9,686 nucleotides of DNA from a virus (IMGVR_UViG_2690316049_000001:1-9686), one strand, 5' to 3'; shown: positions 4,206-9,686, counted from the stretch's first letter. The notes: generated by a model from the sequence alone, not told the origin. A program made the numbers and translations.

Positions 4206-4568
4206 TTAATGACCTGCTGCGCGGAGTTTTCCGTCAGGTTCACCGGCAAGAGTCAGTAATTGTCCCTGGTCTTCCTGCAGAATAGTCAGGCGACCACCGC
4301 GATTGACATACATCGGCGTTTCGGTGGTGTCTTCTTCGGAAATTTTCCCGCGGTTAGTCGGGCGAACATATGAGAGTTTGTGTTTGATTTTCACACGGTT
4401 CTCATCAAATGGTTCGATTTCCAGGTTGAGTGAGACCTTACCTTTGGTTTTCGTGTTCATCACACCGGAAGCGACTTCACTGAGAACTGCGCCGATTTTG
4501 GTTTCAAATACGCCGCCGTCCAGCTCCCCAATAAATGCCTGCACATCAGTACTGCGTTCGCTAGCCAT
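4206..4568 (-). CDS. Hypothetical phage protein (120 aa), first gene of the leftward operon
   Basis: Internal start MASERSTDVQAF at 4568 has a strong SD (AGGAG, 7-nt spacing). The 106-codon upstream extension in the ORF track is Arg/Cys-rich translation of GC-rich DNA and has no RBS. Confidence 0.7.
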   Translation of the reverse strand: MASERSTDVQAFIGELDGGVFETKIGAVLSEVASGVMNTKTKGKVSLNLEIEPFDENRVKIKHKLSYVRPTNRGKISEEDTTETPMYVNRGGRLTILQEDQGQLLTLAGEPDGKLRAAGH

Positions 4569-4588
4569 TTTTCTGCTCCTAATCATAT

Positions 4589-4751
4589 CGACCCTGCAAG
4601 GTCGGTTGGTTTCTCCACAAAACAGAGAAGAACACCTGCGGTGGCAGCCGCCCGGATGGATTGGGTTATGAGCCCGTCGTCCGGTGATGTTCTTCTCTGT
4701 TTTGTAAAAAGAGCGGTACCAGCCGGAAGCAAGTGTACAAACTGGTACCGC
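4589..4751. other. GC-rich structured non-coding segment: three consecutive hairpins, including an 18-bp perfect inverted repeat
   Basis: Hairpin A: cgacc/ggtcg (4589-4604). Hairpin B: ACAAAACAGAGAAGAACA (4617-4634) pairs perfectly with TGTTCTTCTCTGTTTTGT (4688-4705), enclosing a 53-nt GC-rich loop with sub-stems (gcgg/ccgc, ccgga/tccgg, ggg/ccc). Hairpin C: 10-bp stem gcggtaccag/ctggtaccgc (4713-4722 with 4742-4751). No credible ORF on either strand. Confidence 0.4.
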
Positions 4752-4977
4752 GAGGACTACACACAGCATAAAGTTGTGGTGCCGGGTGCCTCCCGGTGCC
4801 TGGCGAAGGTTGCACACCAGGCGGGTGGGTATCCACAGAAGGTCGACTGTCAGCCTCAACCTTAACCCGCGTGCGCTGAGCCGCATTCACCACAACGCTA
4901 AGGATTCTCTCTGGTTGAAAATACTTAGCTGTTATGTGCCTGCTTTTAGCCACATCAGGCGAGGTGGACCTAGTTAT

Positions 4978-5021
4978 TCCCCAACAACAAGGATTTGGTT
5001 AATCTGGATATCCCCAACAAC
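4978..5021 (+). repeat. Two 11-bp direct repeats TCCCCAACAAC spaced 33 bp apart, upstream of the 5038 ORF
   Basis: Exact copies at 4978-4988 and 5011-5021, each preceded by AT. A 33-bp spacing is about three helical turns, typical for a direct-repeat transcription-factor binding pair. Confidence 0.5.
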
Positions 5022-5037: not shown

Positions 5038-5559
5038 GTGATAGCTGAACTGTCTGCGGCTATGGCCGCTATAAAGGAGACTGCCGGTCTTGCTAAGGTT
5101 ATTAATGACGCGAAAACGGATGCAGAAGTTAAAGCTGCAACCATTGAACTCCAGAACAAACTAATCACGCTTCAGGCAGAATGCTTCTCTCTTGGCGATG
5201 CGATCCGCCTTCGTGATGAAGAGGTGATGCATCTCAAAGCAAAAATTGCAGAGTTTGAAGATTTTTGTGCCAAGGTAGAAGGATATGTCCTTGATCAGCT
5301 TGACTCTGGTGCTTTTGTTTACTCTAAAAATGAAATTGTGAGTGGAAAAGAAATAACTGTGCATCTGTGCCCACTTTGTTATTCCAAAAATATAAAATCG
5401 ATACTTCATCCGCTTCCAGTAGGTAAAACTTCTCATTTTCTTACAAGCCGTTGCCTTCACTGTGAAAATAAATTTCTTATGGAAAAAAATCCGATGTACG
5501 AACGACCAAGATCATTACGTGAGTTGGGGCGAGATCTGAATTCGCCTTGGATTCCTTAA
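5038..5559 (+). CDS. Hypothetical coiled-coil plus C4 zinc-ribbon protein (moron-like, convergent with cI)
   Basis: 173 codons from GTG 5038 (alternative ATG at 5062). N-terminal half is predicted helical (IELQNKLITLQAECFSLGDAIRLRDEEVMHLKAKIAEFEDF). C-terminal part has Cys-x2-Cys, 24 residues, Cys-x2-Cys (HLCPLC ... CLHC). Strongly AT-rich, unlike its neighbours. Followed by an intrinsic terminator. The start codon is uncertain because neither candidate has a strong SD. Confidence 0.6.
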   Translation: MIAELSAAMAAIKETAGLAKVINDAKTDAEVKAATIELQNKLITLQAECFSLGDAIRLRDEEVMHLKAKIAEFEDFCAKVEGYVLDQLDSGAFVYSKNEIVSGKEITVHLCPLCYSKNIKSILHPLPVGKTSHFLTSRCLHCENKFLMEKNPMYERPRSLRELGRDLNSPWIP

Positions 5560-5601
5560 ATCTTGCATTGGTTGGATGATACCCAGATTGTTAAAGAGCT
5601 A

Positions 5602-5624
5602 AGCGTCCTGTAGGGCGCTTTTTT
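5602..5624 (+). terminator. Rho-independent terminator downstream of the 5038-5559 ORF
   Basis: agcgtcc-tgta-gggcgct: 7-bp stem with one G.U pair and a 4-nt loop, followed by a run of six T (5619-5624). Confidence 0.6.
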
Positions 5625-5702
5625 GTTGCTAACGAATCATCCTGGACTTCATATGCCCCAGGCGGCTACTTCGTGGGCGTCCTGCCTGTTCGTTATCTTT
5701 GA

Positions 5703-5731
5703 TATAAAATCTAACTTAACTTAGTTGTCAT
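5703..5731 (-). promoter_or_regulatory. Candidate leftward (pL-like) promoter with an operator-like 14-mer (OL-a, CTAACTTAACTTAG, 5711-5724) in its spacer
   Basis: On the minus strand: -35 ATGACA (5731..5726), spacer, weak -10 TTTATA/TATATC (about 5708..5701). The 14-mer CTAACTTAACTTAG matches the CTAA-N5-CTTAG motif found twice in the cI-cro intergenic region. Lies just downstream of the cI stop, where OL/pL sits in lambdoid phages. Confidence 0.3.
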
Positions 5732-5789
5732 GGCAAGAGAAAACACCAAACTTTTCTTAGTTCGGTGCCTTAGTTAGAGAAGAGAGGCC

Positions 5790-6416
5790 TTAGAGTTCGT
5801 ATTGAACTCCTTTGACTACACCAATGATAAGGCAATTACCATTGATAGGGATGTTGGGATACCGAGGATTTAATGGTACTAAAAACTTTTGAGGGCCATC
5901 GATGACTAATTTTTTTACTGTAGCTTCGTTTGTTCCATCAAGTCGAGCGATGACTATTTTTCCATGACGAGGTTCTGCATCTGGATCTACAATCACTGTT
6001 GCGCCTTCTGGTATTGTTGGGAGGCCATTAGGGTTAGTCATGGAGTCACCTTTAACCTCTAATGCAAATGAGTTATCACCAACCTTTAATGATGTATCTA
6101 CCCACTTGTCCACTTCACTAAACACTTCTGCTGCCCTGCACTCAGTAAACTGCCCAGCCTGAACCCACGATATTACAGGAACTCTGCGCATGTTTGTGAC
6201 GAGTTTGCCTTCAAACTCAGCACCATAAAGAATGTAATCTATTGACGTATTGAAGAACTTCGCTAATTTCGAAAGTGCCTCCCCACCAGGGGTATTGATG
6301 TCTTTCTCCCAGTACCCCACAGCAACGTCGCTTACTCCACAAAATTTACCCAATTCTTTCTGGGACGTTCTGGTAACTCTTCTCAGAGCTTTTATACGCT
6401 GACCAACCGTTTCCAT
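5790..6416 (-). CDS. cI: CI-like prophage repressor (HTH_XRE plus S24 LexA-type autopeptidase domain)
   Basis: 208 aa. N-terminal HTH (TSQKELGKFCGVSDVAVGYWEKD). Ala-Gly cleavage site (WVQAGQF). S24 catalytic motifs visible (GDSM with the Ser, downstream Lys in TVKKL). Divergent from the cro-like gene. Confidence 0.9.
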   Translation of the reverse strand: METVGQRIKALRRVTRTSQKELGKFCGVSDVAVGYWEKDINTPGGEALSKLAKFFNTSIDYILYGAEFEGKLVTNMRRVPVISWVQAGQFTECRAAEVFSEVDKWVDTSLKVGDNSFALEVKGDSMTNPNGLPTIPEGATVIVDPDAEPRHGKIVIARLDGTNEATVKKLVIDGPQKFLVPLNPRYPNIPINGNCLIIGVVKGVQYEL

Positions 6417-6428
6417 AGGAGCACCATT

Positions 6429-6491
6429 TCTTTAATTGCTAAGTAATCTTAGTTTTTATTGACCAAAGATAGATTTGTAATTAGCATCTAA
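6429..6491. promoter_or_regulatory. OR-like operator/promoter region: two 14-bp CTAA-N5-CTTAG sites flanking a candidate pR
   Basis: OR-a CTAAGTAATCTTAG (6429-6442, palindromic outer arms) and OR-b CTAATAAAACTTAG (6478-6491). Between them: -35 TTGACC (6449-6454), 17-nt spacer, -10 TAGCAT (6472-6477). OR-b overlaps the -10 and start-site region. SD GGAGGG precedes the cro ATG at 6514. Confidence 0.5.
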
Positions 6492-6513
6492 TAAAACTTA
6501 GTTTGGAGGGCGT

Positions 6514-7653: not shown

Positions 7654-9686
7654 ATGAGCACTAAATTAACCGGCTATGTATGGGATGGTTGCGCTGCATC
7701 AGGCATGAAGTTATCCAGCGTGGCAATTATGGCCCGCCTGGCTGATTTCAGTAATGACGAAGGTGTGTGCTGGCCATCAATTGAAACCATTGCCCGTCAG
7801 ATTGGCGCGGGGATGAGTACCGTCAGAACGGCTATCGCACGGCTGGAAGCAGAAGGCTGGTTAACGCGTAAGGCGCGTCGCCAGGGTAACAGCGCACAGG
7901 CGGCAGCAGACTCACAAACTGCATCGGCAAACTCCGCGACAGCAGCCAAAAAATCAGAAACCAACGCGAAAAATAGCGAGGCAGCAGCAAAGAGCAGCGA
8001 AACAAACGCTAAAGCCAGCGAAACTAATGCTAAATCCAGTGAAACAAACGCGGCGAAATCTGCGGCGGACGCACTTAATTATCGCAACCAGGCGCAATTA
8101 ATTGTTGGCGATAATATCGGTCTTGGCTCAGCCCCGCGTGATTGTCCTGATATTTCCGGCAACCCATCAGGGTATATCGGATTTATGCGCATTATGAGTA
8201 ATGCAAAAGGATTTCCATCGATTGCATCCGGTGAAAGCAGTCTTACGGGGTTTATTAGTCAGGTAGATGGAACACCAGCGTATACAGGTGTATTTCAGGG
8301 ATGGGCTACGCGCTCGCTTTATACTTATCGCTGGAATCCGACAATAGGCCCGCAATGGACACGCCACGCAAGAAAAGATGAGGTTATCCGATTTCAGCGT
8401 TCAAGCGACACAAGAACCATCATTTTATCTACTGACGTTCAGGCGGACGGCTGTTACTTACAGGTTGATGCTGACGGTCAGTGGGGCGCATTTAACCCTA
8501 AAGCTGGTAGATGGCAACCGCTCGCAGTTGCGCAAGGTGGCACAGGGGCGAATGATGCAAGTACAGCGCGCTCTAAACTTGAAGTCATGTTTGAAGCAAA
8601 AACTGGCCTTGATGCGAATACGAACTTAAACGATATAAAAGGTACTACAGCCGGTTTTTATTACCAACCAATGTCTGCCAACGCAAAGCCAGAACTAAAT
8701 TACCCGATACAGCTTGCTGGTGCATTGTTAGTGCAAAGAACTGGTGCTAATGGTAGTGATGGTTGTATCCAGAGCTATTTTGTATATAACAATTCATCAA
8801 TTCTTTATAGAAGGATATATACCAGCACACAAGGTTGGAGTGTATGGAAAAAAATAGTATTAACAGAAAGAATTGAAGAAGGCGAATCGACTACTTACGT
8901 TTATTCGAATTACTCACCATCAGCGCCACGACTTCAGGTGTCAACATCTGGATTGTGGGGTTGCCATAACGGATCGTCATGGGTTCCATTACCTATTGGA
9001 CAAGGAGGCACTAATGCGGCAACTGTTGATGGTGCCAGAACGAATCTTGGCTTAGGTAGGAACAACAGCCCTCAACTTAACAGTCTATTTCTTGATAGAT
9101 ATAGTGATTCGACCAATACATACACATCTAGTGGAATTCTCCATACAAGACTGTTAGCAACTGACAGCACTGTGCGTCTTGGTGCTGATATGTATGTTGA
9201 AACTTTATCAAATGAGCCAGGTCAATTAACAATAAGGTTTACATACGATGGTTCAACTGGTGCTTCAAAATATCTAAACCTTAATTCAGAAGGTAATTTA
9301 ATTGTAGATAGTGCGATACTGAAATCAACGGTTGAAAAACCTTTACAAATAAGGAGCGCTAACCCAGCAATAAGATTTAATGAAACAGATCGCCCGGCTA
9401 ACACGCCTACTTATACTCTCATTGCTAATGCTGGCGACTGGTTTATTCAGAAACGCGATTATGATGATGCCGGAAGCGTTAGTAACGCAATTGCATATAA
9501 TTTCGCAAACGACAGAATTGATGTGCAGAATCTTAAAGCGTCTGGGTTAATTACAGCTAACTCAGGAATTGCAACATTAACAGGTCATGACTGGAACGCT
9601 CAGCATACTGATAACGTCGACAAATTTAGATCAATTGCAGGCAGTACAAACGGCCCGGCAGGCTCTATGGTTCTTGGCGGCATTCA
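7654..9686 (+). CDS. In-frame chimeric ORF: N-terminal HTH domain (replication-initiator-like) fused to a side-tail-fibre body; 3' end beyond the window
   Basis: Translated by hand: ATG 7654 with SD GAGG, no stop codon to 9686 (at least 677 codons). Residues 1-79 carry an HTH (PSIETIARQIGAGMSTVRTAIARLEAEGWLTRKARRQGN). From about residue 80 the sequence is tail-fibre-like: KSETNAKNSE / SSETNAKASETNAKSSETNA repeats, then two modules with the fibre motif QGGTGANDASTARSKL and QGGTNAATVDGARTNLGLG. Absent from the ORF track only because it has no stop in the window. Confidence 0.75.
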   Translation, partial: MSTKLTGYVWDGCAASGMKLSSVAIMARLADFSNDEGVCWPSIETIARQIGAGMSTVRTAIARLEAEGWLTRKARRQGNSAQAAADSQTASANSATAAKKSETNAKNSEAAAKSSETNAKASETNAKSSETNAAKSAADALNYRNQAQLIVGDNIGLGSAPRDCPDISGNPSGYIGFMRIMSNAKGFPSIASGESSLTGFISQVDGTPAYTGVFQGWATRSLYTYRWNPTIGPQWTRHARKDEVIRFQRSSDTRTIILSTDVQADGCYLQVDADGQWGAFNPKAGRWQPLAVAQGGTGANDASTARSKLEVMFEAKTGLDANTNLNDIKGTTAGFYYQPMSANAKPELNYPIQLAGALLVQRTGANGSDGCIQSYFVYNNSSILYRRIYTSTQGWSVWKKIVLTERIEEGESTTYVYSNYSPSAPRLQVSTSGLWGCHNGSSWVPLPIGQGGTNAATVDGARTNLGLGRNNSPQLNSLFLDRYSDSTNTYTSSGILHTRLLATDSTVRLGADMYVETLSNEPGQLTIRFTYDGSTGASKYLNLNSEGNLIVDSAILKSTVEKPLQIRSANPAIRFNETDRPANTPTYTLIANAGDWFIQKRDYDDAGSVSNAIAYNFANDRIDVQNLKASGLITANSGIATLTGHDWNAQHTDNVDKFRSIAGSTNGPAGSMVLGGI
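7948..8058 (+). repeat. Imperfect tandem repeats encoding (K/A/S)SETNA(K) heptad-like units inside the tail-fibre portion
   Basis: Four consecutive units at nucleotide level (tcagaaaccaacgcgaaa, agcgaaacaaacgctaaa, agcgaaactaatgctaaa, agtgaaacaaacgcggcgaaa). Such repeats are typical of the proximal shaft of lambda Stf-like fibres. Confidence 0.6.

Follow-up and report, generated by a model that had tools for sequence, protein, structure and literature searches.

The window, as the whole stretch of 9,686 nucleotides that was analysed is called here, comprises the left arm and the immunity region of an enterobacterial lambdoid prophage. Its minus strand carries an integrase gene, a gene for an excisionase-like HTH protein, a PAPS-reductase-like gene, yfdR, yfdQ and yfdP, which are followed by the open reading frame (ORF) described here, on the plus strand. 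To the right of the ORF lie cI on the minus strand and then cro, the CII-like ymfL and a DUF4222 gene. The region around the ORF contains the following features:

4704 to 4926, minus strand: STnc100-like prophage sRNA element that ends in a terminator-like hairpin (Rfam RF02076, a marginal match of 49.1 bits against a gathering score of 47).
4936 to 5021, plus strand: conserved leader element of about 85 nt with GTGCCTGCTTTTAGCCACATCAGGCGAGGTGG, two CCCCAACAAC repeats (4979-4988 and 5012-5021) and a -10-like TAATCT (5000-5005), delimited by alignment, repeat search and flank boundaries.
5038 to 5559, plus strand: rip1-like coding sequence of 173 aa with a GTG start and a TAA stop (ORF list, PGAP, phrog_1244, PDB 9oox_L, Foldseek and dN/dS).
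5601 to 5628, plus strand: intrinsic terminator of the cassette; its 8-bp stem lies at 5601-5620, has five G-C pairs and is followed by the T-run TTTTTTGTTG (terminator scan and folding).
5708 to 5736, minus strand: pL-like promoter TTGCCA-17-TAGATT overlapping the operator-like palindrome CTAACTTAACTTAG at 5711-5724 (promoter scan).
5790 to 6416, minus strand: gene for a cI-type repressor (HTH_3 and Peptidase_S24; Pfam and PHROG), convergent with the ORF.
6439 to 6501, unstranded: OR-like operators between cI and cro, at 6439-6452 and 6488-6501 (pattern search).

The convergence of the ORF with cI and the presence of its own intrinsic terminator, a hairpin with a T-run, had both been described in the original prediction and are borne out by these coordinates.

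In E. coli genomes, PGAP annotates the ORF with identical coordinates as WP_000559913.1, a 'hypothetical protein'. The GTG start is supported because the start codons and the N-terminus MIAEL... of homologous loci line up with those of the window ORF in alignments. Comparison of the ORF with alleles in the same slot gives dN/dS values of 0.18-0.27, indicating purifying selection, and an exhaustive HMMER scan recovers 808 cluster representatives of the family at 50% clustering, nearly all of which are 145-180 aa long and align end to end. The ORF is therefore a real, selected protein-coding gene. Its GC content is 41.4% (GC3 32%), compared with a window mean of 46.1%, 52% in the left flank and 43.1% in cI. 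Thus, the ORF is AT-rich with respect to its left neighbours and not with respect to cI, so that the earlier description of a base composition unlike that of the neighbours holds on one side only. Many E. coli chromosomes contain the rip1-like sequence without a single difference. A 901-bp query is matched in part, mostly by its flanks, in 1928 of 5426 complete E. coli genomes; at least 80% of it is covered in 373 of the 5426, and these genomes have the present cargo or an allele close to it.

Where a genome matches the window over its full length, the prophage is a remnant of about 12 kb, located at tRNA-Thr beside proA. The genes from int to ymfL are followed in this remnant by DUF4222, a tail-fibre gene, a GIY-YIG gene and IS1, and no replication, lysis, head or packaging genes are found in it. 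The rip1-like gene and the immunity region are thus kept in a defective prophage, of which strain YD786 carries a fuller version. The tail-fibre gene, 3144 nt long, starts at about 7654 on the plus strand directly after DUF4222 and extends beyond the window, which explains why the ORF list has no entry for this part; an A-rich skew at 7800-8100 lies inside it.

On the left side of the cassette, a 226-aa minus-strand ORF at 4206-4886 is not one gene but an artefact that joins yfdP (4206-4568) to a frameshifted pseudogene upstream of it (about 4583-4893). The STnc100-like element adjoins the cassette on this side and lies within the same pseudogene, which PGAP annotates as a hypothetical gene with a frameshift. 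STnc100 has been described as an sRNA that is associated with prophages and related to PasD (bioRxiv 10.64898/2026.05.13.724894). As it was not recovered at the gathering score from the nine related loci scanned, its association with the locus is weak.

The identity of the ORF product is indicated by searches against known structures. A phmmer search of the PDB aligns residues 5-151 of the protein with residues 15-160 of the 164-residue chain 9oox_L, 'ring interacting pore 1 (Rip1)', with an E-value of 1.8e-9. This chain is gp037 of phage HK446, and the title of the entry describes a cryo-EM structure of Escherichia phage HK446 Rip1 with the small terminase of Enterobacteria phage T6. An AlphaFold2 model of the window protein, built on 40 homologues, has a mean pLDDT of 93.4. 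When this predicted structure is compared by Foldseek with the solved structures in the PDB, only two matches are significant, 9oox_L and 9oox_M, with a probability of 1.00 and target-normalised TM-scores of 0.53-0.74. The sequence search and the structure prediction of the 173-aa product, both proposed as checks in the original prediction, lead to the same protein by phmmer and by Foldseek.

Profile and pairwise comparisons agree with this assignment. The window protein belongs to phrog_1244, a group of 'unknown function' in PHROGs, with an E-value of 2.7e-52, and the group is matched end to end by the window protein, HK446_037 and DMS3-25 with E-values of 1e-52 to 1e-61. By BLASTP, the window protein has 25% identity with HK446 Rip1 (E 2e-13) and 30% with DMS3-25 over 152 residues (E 3e-20). 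As the mutual identity of HK446 Rip1 and DMS3-25 is only 31%, the window protein falls within the spread of the family. Scans of the protein with the Pfam, NCBIfam and PADLOC 2023 profiles gave nothing significant; the sole match in PADLOC-DB v2.0.0 (2023), which is older than the description of Rip1, is a spurious one to a type IV DinG model (E 0.023). A search of the BFVD viral structures returned one significant unnamed match, which is uninformative.

Membership in the family is thus established by sequence, profile and predicted fold, and the ORF in all likelihood encodes a Rip1-family member, a single-protein, prophage-borne abortive-infection defence. The primary description of Rip1 is reportedly that of Patel, McCarthy, Taylor et al., Nature 651:1060, 2026. 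It is a known family, of which the window protein is an unannotated divergent relative; the earlier remark that the protein was not recognised as one of a known family is superseded, as the name, structure and mechanism of Rip1 have been available since early 2026.

The predicted structure and the alignments divide the protein into the following parts:

5038 to 5274, plus strand: N-terminal helical half, residues 1-79, with helices at 2-24 and 28-79 (AlphaFold2, pLDDT 79-97).
5287 to 5487, plus strand: C-terminal beta-rich, predicted zinc-ribbon domain, residues 84-150 (strands of the model, four invariant Cys).
5368-5370, 5377-5379, 5452-5454 and 5461-5463, plus strand: Cys codons, read straight from the sequence.
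5488 to 5556, plus strand: C-terminal tail, residues 151-173, with a short helix at 160-168 (alignment; model pLDDT 71-95).

The four cysteines form the motif C111-x2-C114-x24-C139-x2-C142 (CPLC-24-CLHC), a predicted C4 ribbon. All four are invariant in alignments of 10 and of 40 family members, which include HK446 Rip1 and DMS3-25, and a CxxC-(23 to 29)-CxxC pattern is present in 129 of the 133 homologues retrieved. The pairing of a long helical region with a CxxC-24-CxxC motif, as read earlier from the sequence, is therefore reproduced both by the helices of the model and by the conserved cysteines. The N-terminal helical half is presumed to be the pore-forming amphipathic region because the review PMC13434031 describes Rip1 in this way, and the C-terminal beta-rich domain, whose role is taken from the same review, is presumed to be the sensor that contacts a ring of phage protein. 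No transmembrane-grade segment was found in the window protein, the maximum Kyte-Doolittle 19-residue mean being 1.06, at residue 1. On this scale, the extreme N-terminus is the most hydrophobic stretch in both the window protein and HK446 Rip1. The hydrophobic moments of the N-terminal helices are modest, 0.15-0.34, and unremarkable. The C-terminal tail is specific to the subfamily and is absent from HK446 Rip1.

Superficially, the succession of a long helical region and four cysteines is also the layout of the DksA/TraR C4 zinc-finger proteins, and the ORF adjoins cI and cro. It is thus conceivable that the protein is a regulator which binds nucleic acid or RNA polymerase through a coiled coil and a C4 finger, in the manner of DksA/TraR or of an antirepressor. 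However, the protein has no match to zf-dskA_traR or to any other DNA-binding Pfam family at E ≤ 1. In contrast to DksA/TraR, the cysteines sit in a ribbon domain of about 70 residues that is rich in beta strands, and Foldseek returns no DksA/TraR-like structure, Rip1 alone being significant. Furthermore, Mu-like phages carry homologues between their terminase genes, well away from any immunity region. A regulator of this kind is thus very improbable, and the loose resemblance to the DksA/TraR layout noted in the original prediction has no counterpart in profile or fold. An McsA-like zinc finger was likewise rejected, as the match to the McsA activator has an E-value of 0.24 only and no structural match accompanies it.

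The Rip1 mechanism is taken here from a review (PMC13434031), a meeting report (PMC12908700) and the title of the PDB entry. [quoted passage not shown] By cryo-EM, 12 Rip1 monomers surround an 11-mer ring of small terminase; the amphipathic helix is N-terminal, and the C-terminal half touches the ring. The assembly is a pore, as seen by dye release from liposomes and perforation of cells, and the infected cell dies early. Relatives of Rip1 are widespread in Proteobacteria and mostly prophage-borne (PMC13434031, PMC12908700, PMC13601566 for all of these properties). The published position of the Pseudomonas Rip1 matches that of DMS3-25 (PMC13434031).

The closest comparison is with HK446 Rip1 itself. 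The two proteins align collinearly over their full length, belong to the same PHROG, share the predicted fold and have N-terminal helices and a C-terminal domain with the same four cysteines, whose spacing is 23-24 in HK446 Rip1 and 24 in the window protein. HK446 Rip1 differs in having a 10-residue N-terminal extension and in lacking the C-terminal tail of 20 residues. Both genes are single genes with their own terminators, and each lies within a lambdoid leftward early operon in the opposite orientation, in the window apparently so. HK446 rip1 is located between N and cIII, whereas the immediate neighbours of the window gene are pL/OL on one side and the yfdP-type genes on the other. The Rip1-type proteins of Pseudomonas Mu-like phages (DMS3-25, JBD30 and D3112 orf25) fall in the same PHROG and, as in the window, are each encoded by a counter-oriented single gene. 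Their host and genomic slot are different: the gene of DMS3-25 is reversed with respect to its neighbours, a DUF1804/HTH small-terminase-like gene on one side and the large terminase gene on the other, among the late genes of a transposable phage.

Upstream of the window gene, the two CCCCAACAAC repeats of the leader are 33 nt apart, start to start, and flank the TAATCT hexamer. The leader at 4936-5021 probably holds the promoter and the 5'UTR region. The assignment of a promoter is tentative, as a scan of the plus strand upstream of the ORF gave no consensus sigma-70 promoter; the -10-like TAATCT at 5000-5005 is the only promoter candidate that has alignment support, the other manual candidates being weak. 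When either strand of the leader is folded, the energies are no better than those of shuffled sequences (z of -0.5 and +0.3). A pseudoknot-like pairing (GCCUG/CAGGC with CCAC/GUGG) is possible in the leader, with no covariation or energy support found for it. The repeats co-vary between loci, being CCCCTACAG, twice, in 689R2 and CCCCCACAA, twice, in contig L010. Candidate roles of the leader are those of a promoter or operator, a 5'UTR and an antisense target.

The leader is not restricted to this gene. In alignments, it also stands upstream of very distant rip1 alleles on other phage backbones and of alternative cargo. An exact-pattern scan finds the leader core in at least 120 viral contigs, and in 95 of the 120 the core is followed, 20-160 nt downstream, by the start of a plus-strand ORF that encodes at least 50 aa; the tabulated cargo ORFs start about 70 nt downstream. 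The cargo is rip1-like, with 22-99% amino acid identity to the window protein, in 25 of the 120 contigs. In 41 of them it is a 144-aa protein of the SfIV_36 type (phrog_5286, function unassigned), and in one, contig L085, it is a SieB-family protein (PF14163, E 4e-11, 43 bits, above the family cut-off). The remainder of the 120 carry an LprI-like lipoprotein with a signal peptide or other small ORFs, apart from 25 contigs in which the slot holds no such plus-strand ORF. By its position, the 144-aa phrog_5286 protein is a candidate defence gene.

The boundaries of the exchange can be located by comparison with related phages. With respect to 689R6 and SfIV, identity ends at 5021 and returns at 5583, so that the swap involves the ORF only and the leader and terminator are kept. 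With respect to SfV and mEp460, the boundaries are at 4967 and about 5632. The terminator is common to the alternative plus-strand cargo of 689R6 and SfIV and is 90% conserved in a Kosakonia locus. The whole 81-nt terminator stretch folds no better than shuffled sequences (z of -0.6), but the hairpin and the T-run are nonetheless canonical. The locus is a genuine cargo slot, at which related phages share the flanks and not the cargo. The original prediction had proposed a repressor-adjacent hotspot of the kind that holds sieB or rexAB, and the occurrence of different cargo, including a SieB-family gene, behind the same leader bears this proposal out directly.

SieB of lambda and P22 (PF14163) is an abortive-infection gene product expressed by the lysogen from a gene antisense within the pL operon, and by analogy the window gene may resemble sieB in these properties, its position being equivalent. 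This position would be accounted for if the window gene encoded a SieB-like membrane exclusion protein, or if the ORF were a chance one antisense to the pL transcript. SieB, however, is an integral membrane protein, while the window protein has no transmembrane-grade segment, bears no sequence or fold relation to SieB and gives no PF14163 match (Pfam, E ≤ 1). A chance ORF is at odds with the 808 family representatives, the invariant cysteines, a dN/dS of about 0.2 and the confident fold. These readings, to which hardly any probability can be assigned, are refuted by the profile, hydrophobicity, family, selection and fold tests.

The orientation of the rip1-like gene acquires significance from the operators that surround cI. 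The sequence CTAAN6TTAG occurs three times in the window, twice in the cI-cro intergenic region and once at 5711-5724, and none of 200 shuffled sequences reaches three occurrences. To judge from these sequences, the site at 5708-5736 between cI and the cassette is probably OL/pL of this immunity type, and the cI-cro palindromes are probably its OR. Early leftward transcripts from this probable OL/pL would therefore cross the rip1-like gene in the antisense direction. The gene apparently lies inside the leftward early transcription unit, antisense to pL. The earlier placement of the gene next to the repressor is thus correct insofar as it adjoins cI and incomplete insofar as it probably sits inside the leftward early unit, antisense to the pL-like promoter at 5708-5736.

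A counter-oriented placement is almost constant in the family. Homologues sit in prophage or phage contexts, the window gene being a single gene in a prophage, and in 10 of 11 contexts the gene is counter-oriented to both of its neighbours, in early or late operons of prophages. The ten are the window, HK446, DMS3, PhiR49_1, 689R2 and five metagenomic or genomic contexts; the eleventh is a 1.2-kb fragment and uninformative. The neighbourhoods of homologues, the inspection of which had also been proposed, therefore fit a prophage-borne function. A 211-aa homologue is found in Rac-like prophages of E. coli (loci L015-L017), where it lies between dicB/DUF1482 and the repressor region and has no leader. 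The family therefore occupies at least four types of slot: adjacent to cI, between N and cIII, adjacent to dicB, and between the terminase genes.

By combining the published mechanism with the features of the window, it is possible to propose how the Rip1-like protein might work. The lysogen would make the protein from the short conserved upstream leader, and the protein alone would be harmless. Late in infection by a heterologous phage, ring oligomers of a morphogenesis protein, which in the studied homologues is the small terminase or the portal, would build up in the cell. The C-terminal zinc-ribbon/beta domain would then bind around such a ring, which would serve as the template for a ring of Rip1. 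The N-terminal helices, bundled together in this assembly, would form a pore across the inner membrane, which would kill the cell before the phage progeny is completed. For the window protein, we infer by analogy with the studied homologues that it is expressed in the lysogen, acts against phages, responds to such a trigger and forms pores. The defence interpretation of the window gene is supported by homology and context, and the exclusion or defence function put forward as a candidate in the original prediction gains support from the Rip1-family relationship and from the prophage slot in which the gene is found.

As the remnant has no packaging genes, the rip1-like gene could also be a relic, though it is intact and conserved. 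The homologue would then no longer act in defence, whether as a silent passenger of the defective prophage, as one in decay, or as a protein that has diverged towards a different membrane role, such as an aid to lysis or entry exclusion. The element in the source genomes lacks replication, lysis and head genes, the adjoining ORF is frameshifted, the scan found no consensus promoter upstream, and the identity to the tested Rip1 proteins is only 25-30%, all of which would suit such a relic. On the other hand, many genomes carry the intact ORF with 100% identity, its dN/dS of about 0.2 points to purifying selection, all four cysteines and the architecture are kept, and the leader and terminator are conserved. 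Loss of the defence function is therefore considered unlikely, and the preferred reading is that of a Rip1-family defence gene.

In P22, the sas antisense RNA controls sieB (PMC12197685). By analogy, the lytic transcription of the resident phage may silence Rip1 in the way that sas acts on sieB. A more general and more tentative possibility, towards which some doubt is in order, is that the locus represents a portable module. The leader of about 85 nt, with GTGCCTGCTTTTAnCCACATCAGGCGAGGTGG and two co-varying CCCCnACA repeats that bracket the -10-like hexamer, might tune the expression of the cargo in the lysogen, and antisense lytic transcription, from pL or from the late region, might turn Rip1 off at induction. 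If so, the terminase and portal rings of the resident phage itself would not trigger suicide, and self would be discriminated from non-self at the level of transcription, analogous to the sas/sieB pair of P22. The leader would then serve any cargo of the slot, whether Rip1-like, SieB-like, a lipoprotein or others.

As the Rip1 family and its mechanism are already published, the present finding leaves the concepts unchanged. WP_000559913.1 and its relatives are annotated as 'hypothetical' in hundreds of E. coli chromosomes, and the Rip1 assignment extends the defence repertoire recorded for clinically relevant lineages by one gene, which is relevant to the prediction of host range in phage therapy. 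The divergent branch to which the window protein belongs, with 25-30% identity to the studied proteins, could be used to learn how the specificity for the trigger, small terminase versus portal, is encoded. Furthermore, the slot, in which rip1 alleles of 22% to 99% amino acid identity share a leader and a terminator, represents a natural allelic series.
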